Origin: an uncultured Anaerolineales bacterium | GTDB taxonomy: Bacteria > Chloroflexota > Anaerolineae > B4-G1 | Direction: 5' to 3' | DNA: 64,000 bases | NCBI GenBank assembly: GCA_964514285.1 | Contig: CAZEQC010000008.1 | Coordinates: 6,181-70,180, forward strand | Part shown: one piece after another, positions 18,543-41,747 of the stretch | Layout: each line of letters begins with the position of its first letter | Numbering within the stretch: position 1 is the stretch's first letter | Notes under the pieces: generated by a model | What the model saw: only the letters and a program-made list of their open reading frames with translations | Database searches by the model: none | What the model was told of the DNA's origin: nothing | Program-made: the position numbers and the translations under genes

Positions 18543-18592
18543 GACCACAGAAAAACCCGGTCCAGAAACGATCACGCCGTTGTCTGCTGGAC

Positions 18593-18621: not shown

Positions 18622-18709
18622 ACTCTGCAACCTATCCAACGCCCGCAACGCTTCAGGCGGGCCGCTTTCCGTTAAAACAAAGCACCGAGAGCCGCAAAGG
18701 AGGCCACCG

Positions 18710-19057: not shown

Positions 19058-19089
19058 CCTATCACCCCACGCGTGGAAACGAGGGTAAC

Positions 19090-26809: not shown

Positions 26810-26838
26810 TTGACAGATACTCTGATGCGTGATAGGAT
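26810..26838 (+). promoter_or_regulatory. sigma70-like promoter (TTGACA-N17-TAGGAT) heading the W/Mo super-operon
   Basis: Perfect -35 at 26810-26815 and -10 at 26833-26838. The predicted TSS at about 26845 coincides with the first leader hairpin. Confidence 0.45.
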
Positions 26839-26844: not shown

Positions 26845-27241
26845 GAATCGTACCGAAAGGTAGGATTCGAACCTGCACCTTACAAGCTCATAGCCACATC
26901 TCTGAACCGCTTGCCCTAAGGCGTCATCGAAGGGACGCTATGGCTAGCGGTCGCAGTGCCGTCTTCTGACGGCCAACGGTATGCAGGGAAACCTGTATAC
27001 CCCCCGTGTTTGGAAAGGAGAATGAGGCGAGGACTTCTTATGACCGGCGCCCTCTTCCCGATGCTAATCGGGCTTGTCCAATCTGGGGGCCGGTTCTTTG
27101 TTGCCCCGGACCCGAGCCCGGTTTGCCCCCTTTCCAGTGTGATACCCTGCAAACCCCACCAGTCAGCGCTAGGGCGCTAGATTGGTGAGGTCCTGTAGCC
27201 GTGCAGATTCCCTGCCAGATCTCTCGAAAGGATGGAAACCC
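26845..27241 (+). promoter_or_regulatory. structured 5' leader of about 400 nt, unclassified cis-regulatory RNA candidate
   Basis: Hand-folded plus-strand hairpins: 26845-26868 (GAAA loop), 26934-26952, 26958-26973 (GCCGTC/GACGGC), 26978-27001 (10 bp, GAAA loop, one G-U pair that would be an A-C mismatch on the minus strand) and 27057-27072 (CCCGAT/ATCGGG). No convincing ORF. Confidence 0.4.
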
Positions 27242-29749
27242 ATGAAAAACCGCAAAGCGCTCGCCCTCGTCCTATCCGCGGCCCTCGGCATCGGCCTGTT
27301 GTGGGCCCTCTTGGCTGCCCAACCTACCGTAGCCACGACAGCGGCCACCACCGCCACGGAGTCAATCACGATCACCAAGTATGCAGCTGATGGCACGACC
27401 GTACTTGCACAAGAAATCATCACCTATGGCCAGATGGAGGCCGCCCTCCCGGTGCACGGCGACGGGGAAACCCACTACTACTTCCAGGGGCCGACGTTCG
27501 ACCCGGATAACCTGTGGGACCCGGACGAGACCATCAATCTCAAGAACAAGGGCGCCATCAAAGGGACCGACATCAAGGATCTCGTGGACCTCGTCGGCGG
27601 CGCCGAGCCCGGCGATCAGATCGAGATCCTGGCGGAGGACAACTACGGGGACGCCTTCCCCTACGACAATGTGTACAACCCCGACCCGGGACAGGGCAAG
27701 ATGGTCGTCGCCTGGTACACCAAGAACGCCGGCGATGCCCACGACCTCTACCCCGATGGTGCGTACGTCCCCGAGTTCGGGGACGGCATGCAGCTCATCT
27801 TCCTTGCGCAGACAACCAACGGGGACGGGAAGCACGTCTTCGGGCACGATGACATGCGCGACTATCTCGCGGAGGAGAACCGACATTACTTCTGGGATGG
27901 CGGCATCCAATATCCCTCTTCCAATGGCACCTCCATCAAGTACATCAGCCAGATCAATGTCTACTCGCAGGCACCTGAGCCTTGGTCGATCGACGTGACC
28001 GGCGCCGTGACCACACCCGTCAGCCAGAGCTGGTTCGAGAACGCCCTCGCCTGCCACGAGGTGGTGACTTGGACCGACGGCGGCGGTGACGTGTGGAGTG
28101 GCCTACCTCTCTGGTACATGCTGGGACTCGCGGACGACGAGTACGTCCACGGCATCGGTTCCTTCAATGATGCTCTCGCCAAGGCAGGCTATGACATTGA
28201 GGTTAGGGCAGAGGACAACTACACGCAGTGGTTCGAAAGCGAGGACGTCCGTCGCTCCTCGGGCTACATCGTGGCCAACCTGATGAACGGGAGTCCTCTC
28301 ACCGACAGTTATCCGTTGAGACTGGTCGGGAGCGCGCTGACGTCGGGCTCCCAGCGAGTCAGTAACATTGCCAGCATCAATCTCCACAATATTCCCGAGA
28401 TCGAGACCTGGACTCTCGACCTGACGGGGGCCTACACGTACACGATGAGGCAGGCGGAGTTCGACAATGCCGTCATCTGCCCCAATATCGGGCACAGCGC
28501 CGTCTACACGGACGGAACCGATGTCTACGAAGGTCTGCCCCTCTGGCTTCTCGTCGGCTGGGTGGATGACGACGACGCCCACGGACCGGACTCGTTTAAC
28601 GACGAGCTCGCCGACCGTGGCTATGACGTCCGCGTGATCGCCACCGACGGTTTTAGCCACACCTTCCCCATCTCCGACGTCGCCCGCAACGACAACATCA
28701 TCGTGGCAAGCACCGTCAACGGGCAGGAGCTGCCAGCGGACGCATACCCGCTCAGGCTGATCGGCAGCGACGTGACCTCAGGCAAACAGAAGGTCAAGAA
28801 GATAGCCGAGATCGAGCTCCTTGACCTGCCAGGGCTCGACTATCACACTTACCTGCCGCTCGTCAGCAAACACTCCACCGCTTGGGACCTTGAGCTCAGC
28901 GGAGCGATGACCACGACTTTGACCGCGTCGGAGTTCGAGGCCGAGGCCTCAGACCATCCGGCCTCCTGGGACGATGGATCGGGCAACACGTACGGCGGCA
29001 TAGCTCTCTGGAGGCTGGTGGGTATGGTCGATGATGCCAACCCCGACGCATTCAACGACCAGTTCGCCGCTCTCGGGTATCAGGTCAAGGTGATCGCCGT
29101 CGATGACTACAGCTACACGTTCCAGGCCTCCGATATCCCCAAGGACGACGGCATCGTCGTCGCCAACACCCTGAACGGGGGCGCGCTGCCCGACGACGAG
29201 TCCCCGCTCAGGCTGGTCGGCAGCGCTCTGGTCTCCGGTGGACAGAGAGTCAAGAAGATAGCAAGAATCGAGCTGCTCAATCTGCCGACGGTGACCCCGG
29301 ATTGGGAGCTTGACCTGAGCGGCGCGATGACCACCACGCTGACTGCGACCGAGTTCGAGACGGAGGCCGCGGACCACCCCGCCTCCTATGATGATGGCTT
29401 CGGTAGTCTGTACGAGGGCGTGGCCCTCTGGCGGCTGGTGGGCATGGTCGACGACGACGACCCAGACACCTTCGACGACGACATCGCTGACTTAGGCTAT
29501 GACGTCAGCGTGATCGCCACCGACGGGTTCAGCTACACCTTCCCTATTTCGGACGTCGCTCGCAACGACAACATCATCGTGGCGAACACCGTCAACGGGG
29601 GAGAGCTGCCAGCCGACGCCTACCCGCTCAGGTTGGTGGGCAGCGCCCTGACCTCAGGCAGGCAGAAGGTCAGGCAGATCGCCAGTATCGAACTGGTCGG
29701 CCTGCCAGCCGTGGCAGGGAGACCCTATTCTCCGCCGTCAGACAGGTAG
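27242..29749 (+). CDS. secreted multidomain protein: N-terminal 'X' domain plus four sulfite-oxidase-fold-like (Oxidored_molyb-like) modules
   Basis: Signal peptide 'MKNRKALALVLSAALGIGLLWALLAAQP'. Modules end in 'YPLRLVGSALTSG.QKVK.IA.IEL', reminiscent of the YedY/SUOX '..PLRLVVP...K.VKW...I.' motif. The canonical Mo-ligand Cys motif is not recognisable. Confidence 0.75.
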   Translation: MKNRKALALVLSAALGIGLLWALLAAQPTVATTAATTATESITITKYAADGTTVLAQEIITYGQMEAALPVHGDGETHYYFQGPTFDPDNLWDPDETINLKNKGAIKGTDIKDLVDLVGGAEPGDQIEILAEDNYGDAFPYDNVYNPDPGQGKMVVAWYTKNAGDAHDLYPDGAYVPEFGDGMQLIFLAQTTNGDGKHVFGHDDMRDYLAEENRHYFWDGGIQYPSSNGTSIKYISQINVYSQAPEPWSIDVTGAVTTPVSQSWFENALACHEVVTWTDGGGDVWSGLPLWYMLGLADDEYVHGIGSFNDALAKAGYDIEVRAEDNYTQWFESEDVRRSSGYIVANLMNGSPLTDSYPLRLVGSALTSGSQRVSNIASINLHNIPEIETWTLDLTGAYTYTMRQAEFDNAVICPNIGHSAVYTDGTDVYEGLPLWLLVGWVDDDDAHGPDSFNDELADRGYDVRVIATDGFSHTFPISDVARNDNIIVASTVNGQELPADAYPLRLIGSDVTSGKQKVKKIAEIELLDLPGLDYHTYLPLVSKHSTAWDLELSGAMTTTLTASEFEAEASDHPASWDDGSGNTYGGIALWRLVGMVDDANPDAFNDQFAALGYQVKVIAVDDYSYTFQASDIPKDDGIVVANTLNGGALPDDESPLRLVGSALVSGGQRVKKIARIELLNLPTVTPDWELDLSGAMTTTLTATEFETEAADHPASYDDGFGSLYEGVALWRLVGMVDDDDPDTFDDDIADLGYDVSVIATDGFSYTFPISDVARNDNIIVANTVNGGELPADAYPLRLVGSALTSGRQKVRQIASIELVGLPAVAGRPYSPPSDR
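27983..29701 (+). repeat. four tandem intragenic modules of about 400 nt (about 135 aa): R1 27983-28384, R2 28409-28825, R3 28883-29281, R4 29303-29701
   Basis: Protein-level repeats 'W.LDL.GA.T......F....../W.G..LW.LVG.VDD.../GY.V.VIA.D.../PLRLVGS...SG.Q.VK.IA.IEL'. Nt 28621-28740 versus 29501-29620 is roughly 85-90% identical by manual count. Confidence 0.75.
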
Positions 29750-29887
29750 CACGCGGTCAGAAAGGGGGGCGGCTAGTCACCGCCCCCCGCGGCATGGATC
29801 GGCGGAGTCAGATAGCTCGCTGTGATGTCCAGTCGCAGGTTTGTGTCACGACCTAGGAGACACGACCTACACGTGCGGGAGGAGGAG

Positions 29888-30952
29888 ATGTCCATCAGAC
29901 CAGTAAGAATCGTCCTCGGGCTGGCGCTGGTACTGTCGGCCGCACTTATCCCTGCCCCTGCCGTCACGGCGGCCGGGACCACGTCAATACGCGTCGTCAA
30001 GTACGCCGCCGACGGGGTCACTGTCGTAGATGAGCGGACGATTAGCTACACCGAGATGGAGTCGCAACTCTCAGTGCAGGGGGATGGGAACACAACCTAC
30101 TATCACCAGGGTCCCACCTTCGAGGAGGATGACCTCTGGGACCCGGGCGAGACCCAGAATCTGAAAAGCAAGGGGGCGCCCCGGGGGACCGACCTCAAGG
30201 ATCTCTGCGAGCTCGTCGGCGGGATGTCTGCCGGCGACACTGTGAAGGTCTCCGCCGCCGACGGGTTCAACAAGACATTCGACTACACGAATGTCTACGA
30301 CCCGGAGCCGCGGCAGGGCAAGATCGTCGTCGCCTGGCATTCCGATCGAGACGGCTATGTCCCGAACTGGGGTGACGGCATGCTGCTCGTCTTCTTCGCC
30401 GAGACCACCAACGCCGAGGGACAGTACGTCTTCGGCAACGAGGATATGCGCCGATCGCTCCCTGAGGAGCGATGGCACTACTTCGACATCTATCCGTCAA
30501 CGAACGGCTATTCCGTCAAGAACATCGATGAGATCGCCATCTTCTCCGCGGCCGACGACGAAGACGGCGAGTCGCGGGAAGTCGCACAGGTGGACGTCTC
30601 AGCGACCGTCGTTCTTCCCCAGGTGGCGCTCTCTCTGAACAGAGGCGTCATCGACTACGGCGAAGTTCAGCCGGGCGGGAGCTCGCGGGTTGTGGACGTC
30701 GGCATCACGAATGTGGGCACGACGGAGGTCGATCTCACGCTTGAGGTGCGAGGTAACGACAACGTCGCTCAGCAATTCTACGAGCGTTCCCTCTATGTCG
30801 ACGGAACGGCGTACGCCCGTGCCGCCATCATAGCCAGGATCGAGAGGGCCCAGACAGAGAGCGTGGATACGCAGCTGAAGGTGCCCACTGACTGGGCCGA
30901 GGAGGGCCGGCAGGAGGCCGTCTTTGTCTTCTGGGCGGAGGCGGTAGATTGA
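29888..30952 (+). CDS. secreted protein: 'X' domain paralogue plus Ig-like C-terminal domain
   Basis: Signal peptide. 'IRVVKYAADGVTVVDERTISYTEME..L.VQGDGNTTYYHQGPTF...WDPGETQNLKSKGAPRGTDLKDLCELVGG' is collinear with the N-terminus of the 27242 gene. GGAGGAG RBS. Confidence 0.75.
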   Translation: MSIRPVRIVLGLALVLSAALIPAPAVTAAGTTSIRVVKYAADGVTVVDERTISYTEMESQLSVQGDGNTTYYHQGPTFEEDDLWDPGETQNLKSKGAPRGTDLKDLCELVGGMSAGDTVKVSAADGFNKTFDYTNVYDPEPRQGKIVVAWHSDRDGYVPNWGDGMLLVFFAETTNAEGQYVFGNEDMRRSLPEERWHYFDIYPSTNGYSVKNIDEIAIFSAADDEDGESREVAQVDVSATVVLPQVALSLNRGVIDYGEVQPGGSSRVVDVGITNVGTTEVDLTLEVRGNDNVAQQFYERSLYVDGTAYARAAIIARIERAQTESVDTQLKVPTDWAEEGRQEAVFVFWAEAVD

Positions 30953-32658
30953 CGTCGCGGTTGAAGCTCGCCGTCACCGTCCTGTTCACGGTGACGGCGC
31001 TGACAGGTCTCTTTCCCACAGCGGCGATCAGAGCCGATACCCTTCCCCCCCAGCCGCTGTGGGGCCCTTACGTCACCGGAACCACTGAAACGGGTGCCGT
31101 CGTCAATTGGAAGACGGAGAAAGCAAGCTGGGGCGTCGTGCAATACAGCGATCAGGTGGGGCACGAGGATTTCGTCCTCGACCCCACACCCCATCAGCTG
31201 CACCACGTCACCTTGACCGGGCTCCAGCCAGGCCGGGAATACCACTACCGCATCTGGCTTCTGGACCCCGACGTGAGCCCTGAACCCTTCCGAACGCGTT
31301 CCGCTGATGAGATGGAACGTTGGCTGCGAGAGCACGGCATCGCCGCCGCGGATTGCAGTTTCAGGACCCTGGGTTCCGAGCCCTTCACCTTCGTCGTCTA
31401 CGGTGACACCCAGGAGCAGGACCCCTTCTTCACGCAGATGGAGCGGCACAAGCTGGTCGCCGACTACGTCGCCCAAGAAGAGGATGTCTCCTTCGTCGTC
31501 CATCTCGGGGACCTCACCTATGACGCGGAGGATGCCGTAGGCTGGGACCTCTTCTTTGAAGCCGCAAGGGAGATGCTTGCGAACACCACGATCTATCCCG
31601 TGATGGGCAACCATGAGGATTACTCGCGGTACTACCACGAGATCTTCGGAGCGCCCGAATACTATGCGTTCCAGTCAGGGCAGGCGCGGTTTCTCGTCCT
31701 GGATACGAATGACCGGGCCGACTTCGACGCCCAGACCCGTTGGATTGAGGGCCAGGCCGGAACCCCTGCGGCGTGGATGTTCGCTTTTCATCACCATCCG
31801 GCCTACAGCTCAGACGCCAGAAACTACGGGGGGTGGGAGCTTTCGCGCAGCCACTGGGAGGACCTTTTCCGAGGCGCCGGCGTGAGGGCCGTCTTCTCCG
31901 GTCACGTACACGCCTACGAGCACTACCGGATACGGGGGCTTCACTACTTCGTCGTGGGAACCGGCGGCGGCATGCTGAGTGACCTCAGCCCAGATGCCCC
32001 GGCGGGCCTTCAAAACCGGTTAGCCAAGACCTTAGGCTACGCCAAAGTCACCGTGGAGAGCGAAGCGGCGATCATCCGCTTCCTAAAGGTCGCGCGTGTT
32101 TCTGAGGACAACCGTGAGGTCCTGGAGGTCTACCCGTTCGGAAGCGTCTTTGACACCGTCACCCTCCAGCCCGTTGAAGTGACACGTCCTGTGGCGAGTC
32201 CTGAGCCGGATTTTCGCATCTCGCCGCCTTCGTTGACCATCGCCGTCGATCGCCGCGGTAGTTCCCGCTTCAACTTGATGATGGCCTCCAGCGATGACGC
32301 GCAGATCATCGTGGACACGGAGGCCTTGCCCTTTGAGGTGGAGCCCAACACGCTGAAGATTGAGGGCTCTGGAAAGCCGCAGTCGTTTGAGCTGGAGCTG
32401 TTCGGGGACCCGTCGAGCCCCAACGGTGACTACGAGGGTAAACTCACCTTTGTGCGTGACGCCGGAGACAACGTGGCCCTCGGCGTCAAGGTCAGGACCA
32501 CCGTGACGCAAACGGGGAAGAGATCAAAGCCTCTTGCGTTCGGCCCTGACCAAACCATCCTGCTGATCGCCGTCGTTCTCGTGGTAGCCGCCAACATCGG
32601 CGTCTATGTCGCCTATCGGAAGTACAAAGCTCGCGTAGCCACAAGAAAGGATGCCTAA
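30949..32658 (+). CDS. purple-acid-phosphatase-like metallophosphoesterase with N-terminal FN3-like domain, Ig-like domain and C-terminal TM anchor
   Basis: Motifs 'VVYGDTQ', 'HLGDLTYD' (GDxxY), 'MGNHE', 'FHHHP' and 'SGHVHAYE'. N-terminal 'VNWKT...HHVTLTGLQPGREYHYRI'. TTG start overlaps the upstream stop (TTGA). Confidence 0.8.
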   Translation: MTSRLKLAVTVLFTVTALTGLFPTAAIRADTLPPQPLWGPYVTGTTETGAVVNWKTEKASWGVVQYSDQVGHEDFVLDPTPHQLHHVTLTGLQPGREYHYRIWLLDPDVSPEPFRTRSADEMERWLREHGIAAADCSFRTLGSEPFTFVVYGDTQEQDPFFTQMERHKLVADYVAQEEDVSFVVHLGDLTYDAEDAVGWDLFFEAAREMLANTTIYPVMGNHEDYSRYYHEIFGAPEYYAFQSGQARFLVLDTNDRADFDAQTRWIEGQAGTPAAWMFAFHHHPAYSSDARNYGGWELSRSHWEDLFRGAGVRAVFSGHVHAYEHYRIRGLHYFVVGTGGGMLSDLSPDAPAGLQNRLAKTLGYAKVTVESEAAIIRFLKVARVSEDNREVLEVYPFGSVFDTVTLQPVEVTRPVASPEPDFRISPPSLTIAVDRRGSSRFNLMMASSDDAQIIVDTEALPFEVEPNTLKIEGSGKPQSFELELFGDPSSPNGDYEGKLTFVRDAGDNVALGVKVRTTVTQTGKRSKPLAFGPDQTILLIAVVLVVAANIGVYVAYRKYKARVATRKDA

Positions 32659-33568
32659 ACGGATGAAGAAGCTTGTCGTTTGGTCGATACTTCTGGCCGG
32701 CCTGCTGTCGCTCGTGGCCGGCGCGCCCCCAGCTGCGGTCGCGGCAGGCGCAACCACGGAGCTCCACATCGTCAAGGTCGCCGCGGACGGCACGACGATC
32801 ATCTCCGAACGGACTGTGTCGTACAATTGGATGGAGGAGAACCTCCCTGTACACGGAGACGGTGCCACGCACTACTACCATCAGGGTCCAGTGTTCGAGG
32901 GAGATATGTGGGACCCCTCGGAAGCGCGAAACCTGAAGGACAAAGGCGCTGTGAAAGGCACTGACGCCCGCGACTTGTGTGAGCTCGTCGGGGGCATGCG
33001 CCCCGGTGACGAGGTGCGTTTCGTTGCGGTCGATGGTTGGCATACCGACTTCGCCTACGAGAACGTCTACGAGCCGCTGGACAGACAGGGTCGGATTGTT
33101 CTCGCCTGGTACAACGGCGAGGAGCCGGCAGATGGCGAGAAATACGGCACCGGCTACCCGGGGGTCGAGGGGTATCACACCGCCATGCAGATCGTGTTCA
33201 TGGCCGCCACCACCAACGAGGCAGGCAAGCACGTCTTTGGCAACGCGGATATGCGCGTGAGCTTGCCCCAAGAGGAGTATCAGCACTTCTACCAGGGTTA
33301 CCCCAGTACGAACGGCCTTTCCGGCAAGTGGATCACCGAGCTGATCATCAATTCCCAAGAAGAGGCGCCCCCTGCCGCGAGTGCGACTCTGTCGGATGCT
33401 CCCGAGTCGGAGCCGGAGGTTGGAGAGACCCCGGGAGAGCAGCGCGAAGCAGAATCGGACTCGAACAGCCTCCTGACTCCTGCGCTGTGGCTCGCCCTGG
33501 GGCTGGGGATTGTGGGGCTGGGACTCACCTCTTTTGCCTTCCTTCGCCTTCGGAAGGAGGCAACCTGA
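32651..33568 (+). CDS. 'X' domain paralogue with acidic linker and C-terminal TM anchor
   Basis: Signal peptide. 'LHIVKVAADGTTIISERTVSYNWMEENLPVHGDGATHYYHQGPVF' is the third copy of the X domain. C-terminal 'LWLALGLGIVGLGLTSFAFLRLRK'. Overlaps the upstream gene by 8 nt. Confidence 0.75.
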   Translation: MPKRMKKLVVWSILLAGLLSLVAGAPPAAVAAGATTELHIVKVAADGTTIISERTVSYNWMEENLPVHGDGATHYYHQGPVFEGDMWDPSEARNLKDKGAVKGTDARDLCELVGGMRPGDEVRFVAVDGWHTDFAYENVYEPLDRQGRIVLAWYNGEEPADGEKYGTGYPGVEGYHTAMQIVFMAATTNEAGKHVFGNADMRVSLPQEEYQHFYQGYPSTNGLSGKWITELIINSQEEAPPAASATLSDAPESEPEVGETPGEQREAESDSNSLLTPALWLALGLGIVGLGLTSFAFLRLRKEAT

Positions 33569-33576
33569 GACACGAG

Positions 33577-34194
33577 ATGACGCGCCTTTTCGAACGAACG
33601 TCGAGGACCACTTGGTTGATCCTGGCGGCGGGGGTGCTGTTTCTCGGCGGCGGGCTCCTATTGGGCCTGCGCCAGTGGGGCGGACCCGACCGGGTCGAAC
33701 CTGTGGAATGGGATCTGACCCTGGTCGGCCGTGAGGGGCAGGAGCTGGTCCTCTCATACGACGAAGTAGTGTCGCTCCCCAGCGTGGAGACCCGTGCGGG
33801 GTTCTTCTCGTCCGTCGGGACGGTTTATGGCCCCTACACAGTGAGAGGGATTCCGCTTGATACGCTCCTCAATCTGGTCGGCGGCATATCCCCCTCCGAT
33901 GTGCTCTTCGTGGCCGCCAAAGATGGCTACTCCTGCGTCTTCGACTATGCACAGCTCCAAGGAGACATCGCCACATTCGAGCCGGACACACTCACGATGG
34001 TTCCGGAAGGAGATGTGCGATACCTCCTCATCTTCGAGCAGGACGGAGAGCCCTTACCTGAGAATAGCGGAAAGCCTCTCAGGCTGGCTGTCGCCAATCC
34101 CGACGGCCTGCTCACCGAAGGCCATTGGTGGGTCAAATGGGTCAAGCGCCTGGAGATACGGACCCTGACATCCGATTCGGACAATGGCGAATGA
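33577..34194 (+). CDS. N-terminally anchored single sulfite-oxidase-fold (Oxidored_molyb-like) domain protein lacking the Mo-ligand Cys
   Basis: TM 'WLILAAGVLFLGGGLLLGL', then 'WDLTLVG...VRGIPLDTLLNLVGG...FVAAKDGY...EQDGEPLPENSGKPLRLAVAN....GHWWVKWVKRLEI' (YedY-like C-terminal signature). Confidence 0.7.
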   Translation: MTRLFERTSRTTWLILAAGVLFLGGGLLLGLRQWGGPDRVEPVEWDLTLVGREGQELVLSYDEVVSLPSVETRAGFFSSVGTVYGPYTVRGIPLDTLLNLVGGISPSDVLFVAAKDGYSCVFDYAQLQGDIATFEPDTLTMVPEGDVRYLLIFEQDGEPLPENSGKPLRLAVANPDGLLTEGHWWVKWVKRLEIRTLTSDSDNGE

Positions 34195-34277: not shown

Positions 34278-35354
34278 GTGAAGAACCTTTCCGTTATCCT
34301 CCTCGTATCGCTCTTCGCCCTTCTGCTGACCGGGTGCAGCGGCGGCGTCCCCATGCTTCCAGGCCAGGAGAAGAAGACGGAGATGCGCGTCCTCTTTGCT
34401 GGGAGCCTGATCCTCCCCTTCGACGACCTAGAACACGCCTTCGAGGAGCAGCACCCCAACATCGACGTCTTGATGGAGGGTCACGGATCGATTCAGTGTA
34501 TCCGTCAGGTCACGGAGCTCGAGAGACTGGCCGACGTCATCGCGGTGGCTGACTACTCGCTGATTCCGCTCCTGATGTATGAATCCAAGAACCCCGACAC
34601 AGACGAGCCCTACGCCGACTGGACGCTGCAGTTTGCCACAAACGAGCTCGGTCTAGCCTACACGGATGCCAGCGCCTATGCTGGGGAGATCGATGCCGAC
34701 AACTGGTATCGGATCCTATCCAGGCCCGATGTCGTCTTCGGCATCTCGGACCCACGGTTCGACGCCTGCGGCTACCGCGGCCTGATGTTGGGGCAGCTGG
34801 CGGTCTCGTACTACGACGAGCCGGATCTCTTCTATGACCTCTTCAGCGACCGATTCACCCAGCGGGTGGAGGTGCAGCGCGACCCGCGCGACGACCTCGA
34901 CACGATCCTGATACCCGAGGTGCTACGACCCGAAAGCGACAGCGGGCTGGTGATGCGCGGCTCCAGCGTCCAACTGCTGGGCGTGTTGGAATCGGGCGAT
35001 TTGGATTACGGCTTCGAGTACCTGAGTGTCTCCAGGCAGCGTGACCTGCGGTTCTTGGCCCTGCCCGAGGAGATCAACCTCAGCAGCGAAGCACACCAGG
35101 AGAACTACAGCCGCGCTCGTGTGAAGCTTGCCTATCAGCGTTTCGCCTCCGTCAATCCGGAGTTCGAGGGCAAGACCATCCACTACGGCCTGACCATCCC
35201 GTCCAACGCACCCCACCCCGATCTGGCCGTCGAGCTGATCCAGTTCCTCCTCGGCCCCGACGGTCAGAGGATCATGGCCGAGAACAACCATCCTATGATC
35301 CTTCCTCCCATCGTCGACCGCGAGGAGGCGCTGCCATGGGCACTCCAGCCGTGA
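34278..35354 (+). CDS. wtpA: tungstate/molybdate ABC transporter substrate-binding lipoprotein, WtpA type
   Basis: Lipobox 'LLLTGCSGG'. Collinear by eye with Pyrococcus WtpA: 'FAGSL..PF..L..AFEE.HPN..V..E..GS...IR.VTEL.R.ADV.A.ADY.LI', 'NWY.IL.RPDV.FG.S.P..D.CGYR', 'SG.LDY.F.Y.SV'. GTG after GAGGAGG. Confidence 0.85.
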   Translation: MKNLSVILLVSLFALLLTGCSGGVPMLPGQEKKTEMRVLFAGSLILPFDDLEHAFEEQHPNIDVLMEGHGSIQCIRQVTELERLADVIAVADYSLIPLLMYESKNPDTDEPYADWTLQFATNELGLAYTDASAYAGEIDADNWYRILSRPDVVFGISDPRFDACGYRGLMLGQLAVSYYDEPDLFYDLFSDRFTQRVEVQRDPRDDLDTILIPEVLRPESDSGLVMRGSSVQLLGVLESGDLDYGFEYLSVSRQRDLRFLALPEEINLSSEAHQENYSRARVKLAYQRFASVNPEFEGKTIHYGLTIPSNAPHPDLAVELIQFLLGPDGQRIMAENNHPMILPPIVDREEALPWALQP

Positions 35355-35388: not shown

Positions 35389-36168
35389 ATGACTCTTTTC
35401 TCTAGCCGTCTCTCGGCGCTGTTCACAGTCTTGGCCGCGCTCCTGGTCCTCTTCATCGCCTGGCCTCTGGTGCGTACCGTCACCGGTTCCCAGCCGGCGG
35501 TCACGTGGGAGACGCTCCTGGAGGCCGAGGTGCGGAATGCCATCCTCCTCACCTTCTACAGCTCGGCTTGGGCAACCGTCATCGCCTTCGTCACCGGGGT
35601 GCCCCTGGCGTATCTGCTTGCCCGCACCGACTTCCCCGGCAAGCGCTGGATTGAGGGAATCGTCGATGTGCCCGTCGTGGTACCCCATTCGGCCGCCGGC
35701 ATCGCGCTACTCTTGGTCTTCGGAAGGCGATCGTTTCTGGGCCGGACGTTCGGCCGGATGGGGCTCAGGTTCGTCTCGGCTGTTCCGGGCATTGTGATCG
35801 CCATGCTCTTCGTAAGCCTCTCGTTCCTGGTCGATGCGGCCCGCGAGGGGTTTGAGAGCGTCGATCCTCGGCTTGAGCGCGTAGCGCGCACCCTCGGTGC
35901 CTCTCCCTGGCAGACGTTTTGGCGCGTCTCCTTCCCGCTGGCGCGGCGCAGCATCCTCTCCGGGATGATCCTCATGTGGGCAAGGGGACTGAGCGAGTTC
36001 GGCGCCGTGGTCATCCTCGCCTATCATCCTATGATCGCTCCGGTGCTCCTCTTCGAGCGGTTTCAGTCGCTCGGGCTCGACTACGCCACGCCGGTGGCAG
36101 CCATCATTGTCATCATCTGCCTTCTCACGTTTGTAGCCCTACGCTTCGTCGCTCAGGAGAGGGAGTAG
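35389..36168 (+). CDS. wtpB: tungstate/molybdate ABC transporter permease (WtpB/ModB family)
   Basis: 6 TM and a CysTW/ModB-type EAA loop, 'ESVDPRLERVARTLGASPWQTFWRVSFPLA'. Confidence 0.85.
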   Translation: MTLFSSRLSALFTVLAALLVLFIAWPLVRTVTGSQPAVTWETLLEAEVRNAILLTFYSSAWATVIAFVTGVPLAYLLARTDFPGKRWIEGIVDVPVVVPHSAAGIALLLVFGRRSFLGRTFGRMGLRFVSAVPGIVIAMLFVSLSFLVDAAREGFESVDPRLERVARTLGASPWQTFWRVSFPLARRSILSGMILMWARGLSEFGAVVILAYHPMIAPVLLFERFQSLGLDYATPVAAIIVIICLLTFVALRFVAQERE

Positions 36169-36170: not shown

Positions 36171-37301
36171 ATGGGCCTGCGAGGGCGTCTGCAAACGCTC
36201 CGTACCCTGCACGCGGCCCACCGCCAGCGGCCCACGCAAGAACCAGCCGCGCTGCGGATCCAGGATCTCCACGTAGACCTTGAGGAGTTCCACCTGGAGG
36301 CAATAAACCTCGAGATCGCCGCCGGGGAATACTTCGTCCTACTCGGTCCGACGGGAGCGGGGAAGACTGTCCTCCTCGAGACAGTAGCGGGGCTCTTGCC
36401 CCCTCTCAGAGGACGCATCGTCATCGACGGGAACGACATAACCGAGACGCCCCCAGAGCGGCGAGGGTCGGGCTTCGTCTACCAGGACTACGCACTCTTC
36501 CCACACCTGAACGTGGCCGACAACATCGCCTTCGGCCTGAGGCTGAACCGGCACCTGCCAGGTGACGCAGTCGAGCGCCGAGTTACGGAGATGGCTTGCT
36601 TGCTGTCTATCCACCACCTCCTTCACCGTAGCCCCAACACACTCAGCGGGGGCGAGCGACAGCGGGTCGCCCTCGCGCGGGCCTTGGTTACGGAACCGGC
36701 CGTCTTGCTGCTCGACGAACCTCTCAGTGCCCTCGATCCCCAGACGCGCACGGGCTTGCAGCGAGAGCTGAGCCGCATCCACCGCCAGCTGAAAACAACC
36801 ACGCTCCACGTTACCCACGACTTCCAGGAGGCTGTGACGCTGGCCGATCGTATCGGGCTCCTCCACCAGGGCCGGATTGTCCAGGTTGGCACACCTGAGG
36901 ACATCTTCCGTCGGCCGGCCAGTTCGTTCGTCGCGCGATTCGTGGGCGCTCGCAACCTCCTGGTCGGTGAACTGGTGGAGACAACCGAGGCAGGGCATAG
37001 GAGGTTTGAAACCCGTGGGCTCGACATCGCCGTCGACACTGACCTCCGTGGGCAGGCCCACGCCTCCATCCGGCCCGAAGACATCTTCATCTCTAGGGAA
37101 CCGGTACGCACGGATCCCCGAAACTGTTATCAGGGCACCATCGCGCGCATCGCCGACCGGGGGTCACTCGTCTACGTGACGGTCGATGTCCCGCCGGCCT
37201 TCGTCTGTGCCATCACTCGATACTCGCTGGAGCAGATGGGGCTGCAGCCGGGGATGCCCGTTTACGTCACGTTCAAGCCGTCGGCTGTTCACGTGTTCTA
37301 G
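36171..37301 (+). CDS. wtpC: tungstate/molybdate ABC transporter ATP-binding protein with C-terminal TOBE domain
   Basis: Walker A 'GPTGAGKT', 'LSGGERQRVALARAL', 'LLLDEPLSALD' and the TOBE-like tail 'SLVYVTVDV....CAITRYSLEQMGLQPGMPVYVTFKPSAVHVF'. Confidence 0.85.
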   Translation: MGLRGRLQTLRTLHAAHRQRPTQEPAALRIQDLHVDLEEFHLEAINLEIAAGEYFVLLGPTGAGKTVLLETVAGLLPPLRGRIVIDGNDITETPPERRGSGFVYQDYALFPHLNVADNIAFGLRLNRHLPGDAVERRVTEMACLLSIHHLLHRSPNTLSGGERQRVALARALVTEPAVLLLDEPLSALDPQTRTGLQRELSRIHRQLKTTTLHVTHDFQEAVTLADRIGLLHQGRIVQVGTPEDIFRRPASSFVARFVGARNLLVGELVETTEAGHRRFETRGLDIAVDTDLRGQAHASIRPEDIFISREPVRTDPRNCYQGTIARIADRGSLVYVTVDVPPAFVCAITRYSLEQMGLQPGMPVYVTFKPSAVHVF

Positions 37302-37432: not shown

Positions 37433-38101
37433 GTGACGCTCGACCCGGCGCTCCTGCAGGTGGTGTCACTCTCCCTGCGGGTCTCGGGAATCGCACTTCT
37501 GTTCAGCACGGTCATCGGCATCCCATTGGGGGCGATGCTCGGACTGAACCGTTTCCGGGGCCGCCGGCTCATCATCGCTCTCCTCTATACCGGGATGGGC
37601 TTCCCACCCGTAGTGGTCGGCTTGTTCGTCTACTTGATGCTATCTCGAAGCGGCCCACTGGGTCAGATGACCGCGCCGGTGATCCCCGACCTCTTCACGC
37701 CGGGAGCCATGGTGGTCGCTCAGACGATCATCTCGTTCCCCTTGGTGGCGGGTTTCACCATGGCTGCCGTCATGGGCGTCGATCCGGGGCTCCGACGACA
37801 GGTCCAGGCCCTGGGTGCCACCCCTTGGCAGACGACACTGGCTATCCTCGTCGAGGCCCGCATCGGCGTCATCGTCTCGATCATCGCCGGCTTCGGCAGC
37901 ATCATATCCGAGGTTGGCGCCGTCATGATGGTGGGAGGGAACATCGAAGGCAGTACGCGCATGCTGACCACGGCCATCGTCCTGGAGACCCGGAAAGGGA
38001 ATTTCGACTTAGCCATGGCCATCGGCGTGATCCTCTTGGCTATCTCCTTCGCGGCGAATCTGCTGATGCAGCGGCTCCAGGGAAGGACGGTCGACGAATG
38101 A
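37433..38101 (+). CDS. tupB: tungstate ABC transporter permease, TupB type (true start probably upstream at a non-canonical codon)
   Basis: 5-6 TM. 'LDPALLQVVSLSLRVSGIALLFSTVIGIPLGAML' resembles TupB. The in-frame upstream 'IIDEIIRGISEAFRLIV' also resembles the TupB N-terminus. Confidence 0.8.
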   Translation: MTLDPALLQVVSLSLRVSGIALLFSTVIGIPLGAMLGLNRFRGRRLIIALLYTGMGFPPVVVGLFVYLMLSRSGPLGQMTAPVIPDLFTPGAMVVAQTIISFPLVAGFTMAAVMGVDPGLRRQVQALGATPWQTTLAILVEARIGVIVSIIAGFGSIISEVGAVMMVGGNIEGSTRMLTTAIVLETRKGNFDLAMAIGVILLAISFAANLLMQRLQGRTVDE

Positions 38102-38829
38102 GCGACTTCATCTACCGCATGCAGAACGTCTCTAAGACCTACGACGAACGGCGTGTGCTCACCGTCGACCATCTGCGTATCCGGCGTGGAGAGATCTTTG
38201 CCTTGGTCGGCCCGAGTGGTGCGGGCAAGAGCACGTTCCTGCGGCTGCTTAACTTCCTAGAAAGCCCAAACACAGGCCGCATCCGGTTCCTCGACGTCGA
38301 GTTCAGCTCCATGGGACAGGTTCCCCTACGACTCCGAAGACGCGTCACCACGGTCTTCCAGCGACCGATTCTCTTGAACCGCACCGTACACGCCAACGTG
38401 GCCTACGGGCTCAGGCTGCGCAGCGAGGAGGACGTAGGAGAGAAGGTCTGCCAAGCCCTGGAGGAAGTCGGCCTCGAGAATCACGCGCGTCAGCGTGCGA
38501 GGACCCTGTCCGGGGGCGAGGCCCAGCGAGTCGCCCTGGCGCGGGCCATTGTCCTGGACCCCGACGTCCTACTGCTTGATGAGCCGACGGCCAACCTCGA
38601 TCCCTACAACGTTGGCTTGATCGAGGAGATCGTTCAGCAGCGCAACCGTGAGCAGGGCACCACCCTGGTGTTGGTCACACACAATGTCTTCCAGGCCAAG
38701 CGGTTAGCCGACCGCGTGGCGCTGATGCTGGAAGGCGAGATCGTGGAGGTAGCCGACGTCGAGACCTTCTTCGAAGAACCCGACGATCCACGAACCGCCG
38801 CGTTCGTCCGCGGCGATATGATCTACTAA
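38098..38829 (+). CDS. tupC: tungstate ABC transporter ATP-binding protein, TupC type
   Basis: Walker A 'GPSGAGKST', 'LSGGEAQRVALARAI' and 'LLLDEPTANLD'. ATGA overlap with tupB. Confidence 0.85.
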   Translation: MSDFIYRMQNVSKTYDERRVLTVDHLRIRRGEIFALVGPSGAGKSTFLRLLNFLESPNTGRIRFLDVEFSSMGQVPLRLRRRVTTVFQRPILLNRTVHANVAYGLRLRSEEDVGEKVCQALEEVGLENHARQRARTLSGGEAQRVALARAIVLDPDVLLLDEPTANLDPYNVGLIEEIVQQRNREQGTTLVLVTHNVFQAKRLADRVALMLEGEIVEVADVETFFEEPDDPRTAAFVRGDMIY

Positions 38830-38849
38830 CCAATCATAAGGAGGAATCG

Positions 38850-39767
38850 ATGTTCCGACGAATCGTGAGTCTGTTGACGGCGCTGACTCTGTTGGCCGGC
38901 ACGCTGATGGCGTGCGGCCCGCAGCAACCAACCGAACTCCCACCCACCCCCACCCAACGTCCACCAACGGCCACAGAGACCGAAGCGGAGGAGACGCGGA
39001 CGCTGACCCTAGCCACCACCACCAGCACCGAGAACTCGGGGCTGCTCGGCTATCTGCTGCCCTTCTTCGAGGAGGAGTACAACACCGAGGTCGAGGTCAT
39101 CGCGGTGGGAACGGGCCAGGCCCTGCAGATCGGCGAGGATGGGAACGCCGACGTCCTGATGGTCCACGCCCGCTCTCTGGAGGACGCCTTCATGGATGCG
39201 GGACACGGCGTCCGGCGCGAGGACCTGATGTACAACGACTTCGTCATCGTCGGCCCGCGCGATGATCCGGCCGGCATCGAGGGCACGACCGATGCCGCCG
39301 CCGCTTTCGCTCAGATTGCGGAGGCTGAGGCTACCTTCATCTCCCGCGGCGACGAATCGGGCACACACACCAAGGAGAAGACCATCTGGTCCGCCGCGGG
39401 TGTCGAACCCTCCGGCGACTGGTATATAGCCGCTGGGCAGGGCATGGGCGCCGTGTTGACTATGGCCGACGAGCAGGAGGGCTATACCCTCAGCGACCGG
39501 GCCACCTACCTGGCCCGCACCCTGGAGGGGACTGACCTGGTCATCCTCACCGAGGGTGACCCGATCCTCTTCAATCCGTATGGCGTCATCGCCGTCAATC
39601 CCGACAAGAGCCCGGAGATCAACGCCGAGCTGGCCAACCAGTTCATCGACTGGCTCATCTCCGTGCCCACCCAGGAGAAGATCGCCGAGTTCGGTGTGGA
39701 GCAGTTCGGCTCGCCGCTCTTCACGCCCGACTCAGAGCCTTGGCGAGAGGCGAACCCGGACGGCTAG
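38850..39767 (+). CDS. tupA: tungstate ABC transporter substrate-binding lipoprotein, TupA type
   Basis: Lipobox 'LLAGTLMACG'. 'LTLATTTSTENSGLLGYLLPFFEEEYNTEVEVIAVGTGQALQIGEDGNADVLMVHA...YNDFVIVGP.DDPAGI' matches the TupA pattern. Confidence 0.85.
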   Translation: MFRRIVSLLTALTLLAGTLMACGPQQPTELPPTPTQRPPTATETEAEETRTLTLATTTSTENSGLLGYLLPFFEEEYNTEVEVIAVGTGQALQIGEDGNADVLMVHARSLEDAFMDAGHGVRREDLMYNDFVIVGPRDDPAGIEGTTDAAAAFAQIAEAEATFISRGDESGTHTKEKTIWSAAGVEPSGDWYIAAGQGMGAVLTMADEQEGYTLSDRATYLARTLEGTDLVILTEGDPILFNPYGVIAVNPDKSPEINAELANQFIDWLISVPTQEKIAEFGVEQFGSPLFTPDSEPWREANPDG

Positions 39768-40087: not shown

Positions 40088-40115
40088 TTGACTTAGGCGC
40101 AGGCCTTGGTATAGT
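40088..40115 (+). promoter_or_regulatory. sigma70-like promoter (TTGACT-N16-TATAGT) for the MoSto-like gene
   Basis: -35 at 40088-40093 and -10 at 40110-40115, about 80 nt upstream of ATG 40194 (AAGGAGG RBS). Confidence 0.45.
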
Positions 40116-40193: not shown

Positions 40194-41033
40194 ATGACCC
40201 TCAAACGTGACGAAAGCGGTCGATTGCACATCGACACGCCCCTTATGGCCGAGTCCCTTATGGACAAGTCACTCCTCGATGCCACCGAGACGGAGACCGT
40301 CTTTCGTGCCTTGCCCGATCTCAACGTCATCAAATTGGGCGGGCAGAGCATCATCGATCGTGGCCGTGAAGCAGTGCTCCCCCTCGTCGAGGAAATCGTC
40401 ACCGCCCGTTCGGAGCACCAACTCCTGGTCACCACCGGTGGCGGAACTCGCAGTCGTCACGCCTATGTCATCGGGATGGATCTGGAGATGCCCACTGGCG
40501 TGCTGGCCAAGCTCGGCTCCAGCATCAGCGAGCAGAACGCCCTCATGCTCTCGATGCTGCTGGCGCCTTACGGAGGCATCAAGATCGGCCACGACGACCT
40601 GGTCAAGCTGCCCGCCTACATGGCCCTCGGGTCCATTCCCGTCATGCACGCTATGCCACCCTACGGGCTCTGGGAGGAACCGCCCGAGAGGGGCCGCATA
40701 CCACCGCACCGCACGGACAGTGGCGTCTTCCTCACCGCCGAGGTCGTGGGAGCCAGGCGCTGTATCCTGGTCAAAGACGAGCAAGGTTTGTTCACCGCCG
40801 ACCCCAAGAAGGATTCCGACGCCGAGTTCATCCCCGAGGTAGAGGTTAGCGAGCTTCTGGAGATGGACCTGGACGACCTGCCCGTGGAGCGCTCTATGCT
40901 GCGTGCCCTGGTCAGCGCTCGCAGCGTCCACGAGGTATTCATCATCAACGGGCGTGAGCCCGGGAACCTGACTCAAGCGCTTGCCGGGGAGAACCCAGGG
41001 ACGCGAATCTATCGCCAAAGCCACTCTCAATGA
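40194..41033 (+). CDS. molybdenum-storage-protein (MoSto, MosA/MosB) homologue, amino-acid-kinase fold
   Basis: Collinear by recall with Azotobacter MosB: 'ILPD..VIKIGGQSVIDRGR.AV.PLV.EIV.AR..H.LL..TG.GTR.RH', 'GVLA.LGSS...QNA.ML', 'MPPY.LW', 'IPP.RTD.G.FL.AE', 'VKDE.GL.TA.PK...DA.FIP', 'VNG..PGNLT.ALAGE..GT.I'. Confidence 0.8.
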   Translation: MTLKRDESGRLHIDTPLMAESLMDKSLLDATETETVFRALPDLNVIKLGGQSIIDRGREAVLPLVEEIVTARSEHQLLVTTGGGTRSRHAYVIGMDLEMPTGVLAKLGSSISEQNALMLSMLLAPYGGIKIGHDDLVKLPAYMALGSIPVMHAMPPYGLWEEPPERGRIPPHRTDSGVFLTAEVVGARRCILVKDEQGLFTADPKKDSDAEFIPEVEVSELLEMDLDDLPVERSMLRALVSARSVHEVFIINGREPGNLTQALAGENPGTRIYRQSHSQ

Positions 41034-41038
41034 TCTCT

Positions 41039-41437
41039 CTATGCATCGCTGGCTTCCCCGGCAGGGGTTCGGCCCTCCTTAGCCGCGCGTCCGTCTGCCA
41101 AGCCGCCGACACCACGCGAGCGCCGAGGGCCGCGCGGTTGGGGCGGGGCCACCTCGAACGTCCCCCCCTCGACCTGGAGCGCATAACCTTCGCTCAGCGC
41201 CAACGCCACCTGACGGCGAGCATGGGAGACGATCCGCTGAAAGGTAGAGCGAGAGACGCCCATGCACTCGGCCGCCTCGGCCTGGGTCAGGCCCTCAAGA
41301 TCGGCCAATCGCAGGGCCTCTCGCTCCTCCTGCAACAGGGTCACGCGACGCAGCCCATCCAGCGGTACGCCGGCTGGCTTGTAGATAGCCGGTTTCGGCT
41401 TCTGTGGTATGATGCGTCGCTTGCGGGGCCGGCCCAC
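41039..41437 (-). CDS. DUF134 (UPF0251) family HTH protein, putative regulator
   Basis: GTG start after GAGGGA gives 'MGRPRKRRIIPQKPKPAIYKPAGVPL...LLQEEREALRLADLEGLTQAEAAECMGVSRSTFQRIV', the DUF134 pattern (sigma70 region-4-like HTH). Confidence 0.75.
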   Translation of the reverse strand: MGRPRKRRIIPQKPKPAIYKPAGVPLDGLRRVTLLQEEREALRLADLEGLTQAEAAECMGVSRSTFQRIVSHARRQVALALSEGYALQVEGGTFEVAPPQPRGPRRSRGVGGLADGRAAKEGRTPAGEASDA

Positions 41438-41438
41438 G

Positions 41439-41672
41439 CTATCCCTCGCTGGGATCGCGACGCCGGCGGCCTTTGCCCTCCTCAGCCCCCTCCCCCCGAG
41501 GAAGATAGACGATCTCGGCCGGGAGATCGGCGGCGAGTTTCTCCAGCTCGGCGCGACGGATGCGCGTCTTGTAGACCCGCAGATCCACGCCGTGCGAGGC
41601 CACGATGGCAAAGCGCGGTCGCCCTGCGCCCTTGCCCACGTGGCGTCGATGACGCACGTACAGCTTACTCAT
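41439..41672 (-). CDS. hypothetical small basic protein (77 aa)
   Basis: ATG preceded by AAGAGGAGG. Codon third positions are GC-rich. It lies 1 nt upstream of the DUF134 start and is driven by a near-consensus promoter. I recognise no family. Confidence 0.5.
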   Translation of the reverse strand: MSKLYVRHRRHVGKGAGRPRFAIVASHGVDLRVYKTRIRRAELEKLAADLPAEIVYLPRGEGAEEGKGRRRRDPSEG

Positions 41673-41713
41673 ATCTAGGAGCCTCCTCTTATTTTGAGCA
41701 TATACCCAAAACT

Positions 41714-41742
41714 AGTATACACGACGTAGAAAGGTCTGTCAA
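41714..41742 (-). promoter_or_regulatory. near-consensus sigma70 promoter (TTGACA-N17-TATACT) for the small ORF + DUF134 operon
   Basis: On the minus strand the -35 is 41742..41737 and the -10 is 41719..41714. The inverted repeat TATAC-N9-GTATA (41701-41719) overlaps the -10. Confidence 0.5.
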
Positions 41743-41747
41743 CCAAC

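Follow-up and report, generated by a model that had tools for sequence, protein, structure and literature searches.

Introduction

Tungsten (W) and molybdenum (Mo) limit the formate dehydrogenases, formylmethanofuran dehydrogenases and aldehyde oxidoreductases that drive methanogenesis and syntrophy. Uptake of these metals is currently taken to require just an ATP-binding cassette (ABC) importer for the free oxyanion; importers of the W/Mo oxyanions were reportedly described by Bevers in 2006. The WtpABC, TupABC and ModABC importers occur under the control of the molybdenum cofactor (Moco) riboswitch (PMC2408646). A WtpABC importer and a Tup-like one are likewise found behind an RF01055 riboswitch in the DNA analysed here, a 64,000-nucleotide (nt) stretch from an uncultured Anaerolineales bacterium (assembly GCA_964514285.1, contig CAZEQC010000008.1, positions 6,181 to 70,180; this whole stretch is called the window). 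The difference is that five extra genes, g1 to g5, stand ahead of wtpA, and that two of them, the gene of an anchored protein (X-anchor, g4) and that of g5, are nearly always linked with wtpA in other genomes. A literature search found no described W/Mo importer with accessory surface proteins. No description of this assembly was found either, in a search that most subscription papers lay outside.

Four of the five proteins are related to the sulfite oxidase (SUOX) enzymes (sulfite oxidase, SorA/SorT, SoxC, YedY/MsrP). The fold and the C-terminal PLRL...VKW signature are shared with these enzymes, and g5 is collinear with YedY, with no insertions or deletions near the active-site hairpin. However, the cassette domains are shorter, lack the Mo-ligand cysteine, carry signals for the general secretory (Sec) rather than the twin-arginine translocation (Tat) pathway, and come without a dimerisation domain, heme domain or partner subunit. 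The closest non-enzymatic counterparts are the periplasmic, pterin-binding PruR proteins of Agrobacterium, Vibrio and Klebsiella (PDB 7kos, 7kom, 7kp2, 7rkb), which are likewise secreted and have a Cys-less, degenerate SUOX fold of ~135-150 amino acids (PMC11194511). They are a precedent for an exported fold of this kind that serves in ligand binding. PruR has a tryptophan (the PW motif) at the Cys position (PMC11194511), whereas Ser/Thr, Asp or Glu is found here. PruR is a single soluble domain, while the domains of the cassette are anchored or present in up to 10 copies per protein. The partner of PruR is a DcpA-type GGDEF-EAL protein in Proteobacteria; that of the cassette is WtpA, with no GGDEF/EAL protein nearby, and the cassette is riboswitch-controlled and found in anaerobic Chloroflexota, Bacillota and Archaea.

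The Isd/NEAT heme relay of Gram-positive bacteria offers a purely functional analogy: it too combines a binding domain in one to several copies per protein, secreted and anchored proteins, an ABC importer encoded alongside and repression when the nutrient is replete. Its fold, ligand and regulator are unrelated.

The g1 to g5 genes probably encode an extracytoplasmic accessory module for WtpABC, the front end of a cofactor-repressed W/Mo acquisition operon; the probability of this reading is put at about 0.6. The evidence comes from the fold of the proteins, the residue at their Mo-ligand position, their export signals, the riboswitch and the conserved linkage to wtpA.

Organisation of the cassette

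The five genes are co-directional open reading frames (ORFs) on the + strand, tightly spaced between positions 27242 and 34194. The products are 835 (g1), 354 (g2), 569 (g3), 305 (g4, the X-anchor) and 205 (g5) amino acids long. The g2/g3 junction is a shared TTGA at 30949/30952, g3 and g4 overlap by 8 nt at 32651/32658, and g4 and g5 are separated by an 8-nt gap at 33568/33577. A preliminary description of this DNA had listed these five genes and three junctions, and all of them hold on an ORF check; it had also stated that the genes run into wtpA, and wtpA, wtpB and wtpC are indeed next by NCBIfam, followed by a TupBCA-like set. The riboswitch at 26888-27036 was absent from that account. The features of the cassette and of the importer behind it are as follows.

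26810-26838, + strand: promoter-like site, TTGACA-17-TAGGAT with a TG extension (consensus scan 10/12; a consensus match only)
26888-27036, + strand: Moco/W-cofactor riboswitch aptamer RF01055, P3-containing (62.4 bits, gathering score 36)
27242-29749, + strand: g1, predicted to be secreted; Sec-type signal, X domain (~27359-27976) and four modules, without a membrane anchor
27983-28396, + strand: g1 module 1, 138 amino acids, upstream Cys C271 in an ACH motif
28409-28831, + strand: g1 module 2, 141 amino acids, upstream Cys C413, then His, then YTD
28883-29287, + strand: g1 module 3, 135 amino acids, Asp in place of the upstream Cys
29303-29707, + strand: g1 module 4, 135 amino acids, Asp in place of the upstream Cys
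29764-29788, + strand: GC-rich stem-loop after g1, a reading of the sequence
29888-30952, + strand: g2, predicted to be secreted; signal peptide, X domain and a beta-rich C-terminal domain of ~110 amino acids without a family match
30949-32658, + strand: g3, dimetal phosphoesterase resembling purple acid phosphatases (PAPs); signal peptide, FN3-like N-terminal domain, Metallophos core, immunoglobulin (Ig)-like region and C-terminal transmembrane anchor
32651-33568, + strand: g4, X-anchor; signal peptide, X domain, low-complexity linker and C-terminal transmembrane helix
33577-34194, + strand: g5; N-terminal transmembrane anchor and a single full-length SUOX-type domain
34278-35354, + strand: wtpA, tungstate/molybdate-binding lipoprotein with lipobox LTGC (NCBIfam TIGR03730, 303.5 bits, cut-off 242.75)
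35389-36168, + strand: wtpB, permease (NCBIfam WtpB is the best match, 302.7 bits, under its cut-off of 340)
36174-37301, + strand: wtpC, ATPase with a TOBE domain (NCBIfam WtpC 440.9 bits, cut-off 440; Pfam ABC_tran and TOBE)

A SUOX fold in g1, g2, g4 and g5

Pfam PF00174 (Oxidored_molyb) matches g1 with 69.9 bits and g5 with 44.4 bits, and the g5 match spans positions 6-165 of the 169 in the hidden Markov model. The AlphaFold2 (AF2) model of g5 (predicted local distance difference test score, pLDDT, 88) was matched by Foldseek to chicken sulfite oxidase (2a99) with an E-value of 1.5e-8, and to SoxC, SorA, YedY, nitrate reductase and PruR. Apart from the enzymes, the PruR proteins are the nearest solved relatives: the Foldseek template modelling (TM) scores normalised to PruR are 0.61-0.73 for g5 and 0.55-0.63 for X. 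PDB sequence searches with g5 or the profiles reached SUOX enzymes through their C-terminal PLRL...VKW part alone and never returned PruR.

The repeats of g1 form four modules of 135-141 amino acids with 43-69% mutual identity. Their profile aligns with the g5 family end to end (hhalign 93%); among PDB sequences it matches SUOX enzymes over their C-terminal PLRL...VK part. The X domain, ~200 amino acids long, is found in g1, g2 and g4 (45-50% identity). It has no Pfam or NCBIfam match, but hhalign pairs the X profile with the g5 family at 97% probability. In the AF2 model of g4 (pLDDT 79, helix at 277-304) the top 32 Foldseek matches are all SUOX or PruR proteins. The domains begin at WxLxLxG, without the N-terminal segment of the enzymes. 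The motifs DGY and VKW are invariant in the g5 family alignment, and DG[YW] and [VG]KW are kept in g5 and X. By sequence comparison and structural modelling, g1, g2, g4 and g5 are thus predicted to be built from three diverged flavours of one SUOX fold.

These results agree in the main with the preliminary description, which had recognised the SUOX fold of the modules by eye (Pfam, Foldseek and hhalign point to the same fold and not to an unrelated one) and had counted four additional modules of about 135 amino acids in one protein (g1) and a single anchored module in another (g5). It had rightly described X as a domain of about 200 amino acids common to three genes. The label "novel" does not fit, as the hhalign and Foldseek matches make X a divergent SUOX-type domain. 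The PLRL...VK.I..IE ending had been assigned to every module; the PLRL...VK part of it is shared by g5 and the repeats, while X ends in PSTNGLSGKW.

The Mo-ligand position

In Escherichia coli YedY/MsrP the Mo-ligand Cys (C146 in the precursor, C102 in the mature protein) comes 34 residues after the Trp of WxLxIxG, and another 14 residues lead on to the Pro of GFPL. The same 34/14 spacing in g5 lands on Ser79, in a gap-free register with YedY. All 25 of the aligned g5 relatives have Ser or Thr there, and there is no conserved Cys in the g5 family. Spacing was used for this comparison because homologues of E. coli MsrP gave no better SUOX-enzyme profile (120 sequences, almost all at least 90% identical). 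In X, the Cys position falls in a two-residue gap between a Phe and a conserved Glu-Gly-Asp.

In the modules the hairpin is five residues shorter than in g5, a truncation which resembles that of PruR (PMC11194511). The canonical position falls at or next to the Asp of [WY]TD, and this Asp is present in 151 of the 152 modules compared across loci L007-L086. The register at this site is most likely the Asp itself or the residue after it, although it is not fully settled. As judged from the alignments, an oxygen-donor residue is thus placed in every domain type where the enzymes have a thiolate. The canonical ligand had been called missing or replaced in the preliminary description, which Ser79 of g5, by spacing, and the Asp on or near the position in the modules bear out.

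The proteins are not "cysteine-less", as they had been called. Two cysteines are found in g1 and one in each of g2 to g5. In 134 of the 152 modules (88%) a Cys is kept ~11 residues N-terminal to the canonical Mo-ligand site, and in 143 (94%) a His ~6 residues N-terminal to it. The module Cys thus stands alone in its domain, in secreted proteins of strict anaerobes. A direct hhalign comparison of the modules with YedY (28% probability) had paired Cys with Cys, as if the modules kept the Mo ligand. The pairing needs three gaps and is regarded as a misregister, because the 93% alignment to the g5 family and the WxLxLxG spacing put the ligand position 11-12 residues downstream.

Export and location

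At the N-termini of g1 to g4 a hydrophobic stretch comes after a basic n-region. At the C-termini of g3 and g4 a hydrophobic helix is followed by basic residues, and the N-terminus of g5 is a transmembrane helix. The cytoplasmic tails of g4 and g5 are very short. From these features, g1 and g2 are predicted to be secreted, and g3, g4 and g5 to be membrane-anchored with their domains outside; the calls were made from sequence features, regular expressions and AF2 helices, not by a dedicated signal-peptide predictor. The extracytoplasmic location of all five products, already proposed in the preliminary description, is therefore kept. The ectodomains are all acidic (isoelectric point, pI, 4.1-4.9), and WtpA has a pI of 4.4.

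Known exported SUOX enzymes are Tat-dependent since Moco is inserted in the cytoplasm. The Tat consensus [ST]RRx[FLIVMAG][LIVMFAK] was found in the N-termini of 0/120 X-anchor proteins, 1/70 g5 proteins and 0/150 module proteins, and the pair RR is absent from the N-termini of g1 to g5 in the window. No Pfam domain that would represent a redox partner or an additional enzyme domain (heme b5, cytochrome c subunit, MsrQ, dimerisation) was detected in g1 to g5 or their neighbours. Sec-type export, the lost Cys and the lack of a redox partner domain therefore argue that these proteins are not Mo enzymes.

The phosphoesterase g3

The g3 protein matches Pfam Metallophos (PF00149; 59 bits) and Pur_ac_phosph_N (PF16656; 32.3 bits, cut-off 30), and its best PDB matches are plant PAPs (E-value 3e-9). 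It shares with PAPs an FN3-like N-terminal domain, the five metallophosphoesterase motifs (GDTQ, GDLTY, GNHE, HHHP and GHVH) and, in the window, the Tyr of GDxxY. The ligand residues are GD153, GD188xxY191, GN221H, H282/H283 and GH319xH321. Unlike PAPs, g3 has a C-terminal Ig-like region with a transmembrane anchor, and it stands in a W/Mo-uptake context rather than one of phosphate scavenging.

The complete PAP ligand set noted in the preliminary description is present in the g3 of the window, but its Tyr is rare among orthologues. Only 8 of the 55 orthologues have Tyr at position 191; in most of them the Tyr ligand is swapped for Cys (20) or Asn (18), and 6 have Gly. The other six metal ligands are near-invariant (53-55 of 55). 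As read from these sequences, the dimetal hydrolase centre is conserved and the "purple" chemistry is not. The argument from PAP chemistry to W/Mo handling, which the preliminary description had made, is weakened to that extent.

The cassette in other genomes

Relatives of X were found in 347 GTDB species, and the databases hold 695 relatives of g4. Eighty loci were examined, all of them from strict anaerobes among the Chloroflexota, Bacillota and archaea; linkage was counted in fewer (71, 65, 69 or 74) where the flank was insufficient. The carriers include Anaerolineales, Dehalococcoidia, Syntrophomonadaceae, Peptococcaceae, Methanoculleus, Methanoregula, Methanolinea, GoM-Arc1/Argoarchaeum, Bathyarchaeia and others. 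The nearest locus is from another member of Anaerolineales (L007; 87% identity to g4).

The gene order is strongly conserved. The g5 gene directly follows the X-anchor gene in 70/71 loci, and a 4- or 1-nt overlap joins the stop of one to the start of the other in 53/74. A wtpA gene follows within 2 kb on the same strand in 62/65 loci, and two of the three exceptions have wtpA nearby. An overlap or a gap of at most 30 nt between g5 and wtpA was counted in 61/65 loci, with the caveat that the choice of start codons in the script favours small gaps. The same order is found on independent JGI and NCBI contigs with precomputed Pfam annotation. The linkage of the family to W/Mo transporters, which the preliminary description had seen at one locus, is very strong and extends across Bacteria and Archaea.

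Archaeal copies have a median identity to the window of 60% for X, 46% for WtpA, 44% for g5 and 40% for the PAP-like protein, which makes X the most conserved part of the cassette between the two domains of life. The repeat family falls into 646 clusters at 50% identity (E <= 1e-3). A single protein can hold as many as 10 modules, and fusions of the modules with PKD, SLH, PEGA or cadherin-like scaffolds are frequent. The PAP-like gene is found in 59/80 loci and lies directly 5' of the X-anchor gene in 35/69.

A cultured carrier is Methanoculleus nereidis YWC-01 (L066, 1545-12407). Its cassette encodes a module protein of 1184 amino acids, a protein with X and PEGA repeats, the PAP-like enzyme, the X-anchor, g5 and WtpA, with 4-nt overlaps among the last three genes. 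It ends with wtpA, with no wtpBC adjacent; what is conserved as a unit is thus three extracytoplasmic proteins, the X-anchor, g5 and WtpA.

The names given to these proteins in databases are "hypothetical", "molybdopterin-dependent oxidoreductase", "YedYZ catalytic subunit" and "argininosuccinate synthase". The last of these is carried by two X-anchor relatives (P0056 and P0078, "argininosuccinate synthase [Dehalococcoidia bacterium]" at NCBI) and is apparently a propagated misannotation. The X family is uncatalogued, and each part of the cassette is of a known kind (SUOX/PruR fold, metallophosphoesterase, WtpABC, Moco riboswitch). On one 257-kb metagenomic contig (L001), two genes for aldehyde:ferredoxin oxidoreductases, a tungstoenzyme family, lie at 14677-19701, 4-9 kb from the cassette.

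Riboswitch and transcription

The RF01055 aptamer covers model positions 1-135 fully. It begins ~50 nt 3' of the promoter-like site, and a leader of ~200 nt precedes g1. The P3 hairpin (GCCGUC-UUCU-GACGGC) is legible in the window, and the P3 stem is missing from several relatives' aptamers, for example that of a Peptococcaceae bacterium (L063, SCADC1_2_3). This last locus also has a cobalamin riboswitch at 18646-18897, ~7 kb past the cassette. According to Regulski et al. 2008 (PMC2408646), variants that contain P3 correlate with Moco metabolism and P3-less ones with that of the W-cofactor.

Rfam scans found RF01055 in 12/21 other bacterial cassette loci, each time on the coding strand, and in 11 of these 12 it lies 5' of the first X or module gene. 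A covariance model of our own was dropped in favour of these scans because the MAFFT alignment of five aptamers was structurally poor. In one Dehalococcoidia metagenome-assembled genome (L028) a Moco riboswitch lies between wtpA and wtpB (12645-12764). Tandem riboswitch pairs stand at the head of the cassette in four bacterial loci (L019, 86-420; L029, 4760-5084; L041, 7314-7702; L047, 7086-7468). Tandem and triple Moco RNAs are known from Syntrophomonas wolfei, in which P3-less RNAs 5' of "putative sulphite oxidase" genes were an unexplained exception (Regulski et al. 2008; PMC2408646). These S. wolfei genes are plausibly the same cassette.

Folding of the leader from the riboswitch to g1 gave no significant structure (z -1.7) and did not assign an expression platform. 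By our own reading of the letters, ACCGGCGCCC...GGGGGCCGGU followed by UCUUUGUU at ~27043-27102 is a possible terminator. The stem-loop at 29764-29788 has a perfect 9-bp GC stem (GGGGGGCGG-CTAGTCA-CCGCCCCCC), lies 15 nt past the g1 stop codon and has no U tract; its fold energy is not significant (z -1.6). It may stabilise the mRNA or attenuate transcription, setting the ratio of g1 to downstream expression. A scan for a terminator-like site ahead of wtpA found none, so that the transcript is not predicted to stop there, in line with the overlaps and short gaps of the relatives. Co-transcription of g1 to g5 with wtpABC in the window is the likely arrangement.

Neighbouring genes

The genes that follow wtpC extend the theme of the locus.

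37433-39767, + strand: second ABC importer, TupB/TupC/TupA-like (permease 37433-38101, ATPase ~38110-38829, binding protein 38850-39767)
40194-41033, + strand: MosB-like Mo/W storage gene (PDB 2ogx_B, E-value 3.7e-75; MosA, E-value 3.6e-52)
42516-43514, + strand: moaA (399 bits, cut-off 284)
45234-46460, + strand: moeA-like gene

TupA is the sole NCBIfam match of the Tup-like binding protein (231 bits, under its cut-off of 400), and TupB scores 146 bits. The MosB-like gene, whose product is homologous to the Mo/W storage protein of Azotobacter vinelandii, has a promoter-like site of its own at 40088-40115. The adjoining ORF (41030-41830) has no Pfam or PDB match that would make it a MosA partner. 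The stretch from 26.8 to 46.5 kb is a Mo/W island of ~20 kb for acquisition, storage and cofactor synthesis, with g1 to g5 as its first part. Given moaA, moeA, the MosB-like gene and tupBCA downstream, the organism therefore makes its own pterin and needs the metal. The genes 5' of the riboswitch are unrelated (TruD, CrtC-like, DUF1722, pyrimidine-dimer glycosylase). A tRNA gene at 6683-6764 on the - strand (Rfam RF00005, 55 bits) has no bearing on the cassette.

Proposed working of the cassette

Under cofactor shortage the riboswitch would permit transcription from the promoter-like site at ~26.8 kb through g1 to g5 into wtpABC and probably tupBCA. The SUOX-derived domains would be exported unfolded by Sec and act as binding domains, not as Mo enzymes loaded in the cytoplasm. 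They would capture a W/Mo species at the surface: either the oxyanion or metal that is thiolated, complexed or bound to pterin may be meant for them. The dimetal phosphoesterase-like g3 would probably convert or release the captured species, and the membrane-proximal g4 and g5 would hand it to the lipoprotein WtpA for import. What is bound, which way it is passed on, what g3 does and any physical complex with WtpA are inferred here from the sequences, and surface capture or conversion of W/Mo that feeds WtpA is a putative function. WtpA-class proteins ligate W(VI) through carboxylates, and the predicted oxygen-donor residues and acidic ectodomains are compatible with oxyanion handling.

More tentatively, the system may harvest forms of W/Mo that WtpA cannot bind, such as pterin cofactor from necromass or thiolated and complexed metal in sulfidic habitats. 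The oxygen-donor SUOX arrays would then bind the metal form, the esterase-like g3 would free the oxyanion, and the X-anchor and g5 would deliver it to WtpA. Capture, concentration or liberation of W/Mo had been suggested in the preliminary description; linkage and riboswitch now lend support to this putative function.

Several observations weigh against an accessory role in W/Mo uptake. Riboswitch control does not tell Mo/W acquirers from Moco users, and similar S. wolfei genes were read as Moco enzymes by Regulski et al. 2008 (PMC2408646). The scanned stretch was riboswitch-negative in 9/21 other bacterial loci, and the archaeal loci lay outside the scan. In the window itself, the GC-rich hairpin 3' of g1 counts against co-transcription, and the g5-wtpA spacer of 83 nt is longer than the largest estimated in relatives (49 nt). 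The conserved Cys-His pair of the modules has no explained role under this reading. Finally, g3 may be peripheral, because it adjoins the X-anchor gene in only about half of the loci counted and the PAP-defining Tyr is not conserved.

Alternative explanations

In its working the cassette most resembles a binding protein of the PruR type that has been taken over for the uptake of metal, because the properties expected of a SUOX enzyme (Cys, Tat) are lacking; those of PruR proper (PW, DcpA) are lacking as well. The nearest rival reading is a specific sub-case of the proposed role, in which the proteins salvage extracellular Moco or W-cofactor, or the dinucleotide forms, of dead cells: g3 would attack the phosphate or pyrophosphate and WtpA would take up the oxyanion. 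Free Moco is very labile, and WtpA is an importer of the oxyanion type in an organism that has moaA and moeA. The esterase is also missing from about a quarter of the loci, although its presence in 59 of the 80 is what such a salvage pathway would ask for. The fold is a Moco-binding fold, and the kept DG[YW] and [VG]KW motifs contain what we take to be the pterin-stacking and phosphate-contacting residues of SUOX and PruR, an unconfirmed lead. In PruR the pterin is stacked by Tyr104 and Trp160 and hydrogen-bonded by Asn102, and the invariant DGY and VKW of g5 may be their counterparts. Degenerate SUOX folds such as PruR still bind pterins, but a truncated hairpin of the PruR type, as in the modules, cannot accommodate Moco (PMC11194511), and the domains are without the N-terminal segment of the enzymes. 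Cofactor salvage is accordingly unlikely. The domains could also serve in sensing, binding a free pterin or another small signal and modulating the transporter or another partner without handling metal, as their secretion, the lost Cys and the place of PruR among the best Foldseek matches of g5 and X would allow. No GGDEF/EAL protein or kinase is encoded in the cassette, however, the tails of g4 and g5 in the cytoplasm are very short, and Ser/Thr or Asp stands where PruR has its PW motif. Arrays of up to 10 modules on PKD, SLH and PEGA scaffolds resemble capture surfaces more than sensors, and a sensory role is slightly less likely again than salvage.

It is improbable, and more so than either of these, that the proteins are genuine extracytoplasmic Moco/W-cofactor oxidoreductases of the sulfite oxidase/MsrP kind, regulated by the riboswitch as consumers of the cofactor. 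The PF00174 matches exceed the gathering score, and the database names "molybdopterin-dependent oxidoreductase" and "YedYZ catalytic subunit" say as much; Ser and Asp do ligate Mo in other families of Mo enzymes, and the modules conserve their Cys-His pair. But the canonical Cys is lost in g5 in exact register, the Tat signals of known exported SUOX enzymes are absent, there is no redox partner or dimerisation domain, and the domains are cut to ~135-170 amino acids. The conserved partner is the binding protein WtpA, not an electron carrier. Least probable by far is a chance neighbourhood of generic surface or S-layer proteins and a phosphate-scavenging phosphatase beside a transporter. PAPs usually scavenge phosphate, and the large relatives elsewhere do carry PKD, SLH, PEGA and Cadherin-like scaffolds, yet the order ending in wtpA is kept in 62/65 loci of Bacteria and Archaea, translational coupling is common, the riboswitch lies directly 5' of g1-type genes rather than of wtpA, and no phosphate-regulon genes are present.

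Significance

If the proposed role is true, the cassette adds a first step to W/Mo acquisition in the anoxic, sulfidic habitats of 347 species. It would be the first known accessory capture-and-conversion machinery for W/Mo uptake, common to methanogens, syntrophs, Dehalococcoidia and alkane-oxidising archaea, and it would account for the "putative sulphite oxidase" genes for which those who discovered the Moco riboswitch had no ready explanation. The SUOX fold would gain a second non-enzymatic career beside PruR. The X family, previously uncatalogued, is now defined and open to binding assays and W/Mo-limited growth tests. Its carriers include cultured relatives of Methanoculleus and Syntrophomonas, among which M. 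nereidis is a possible experimental system. Should capture or conversion be confirmed, the cassette would represent a new type of metal-acquisition system.

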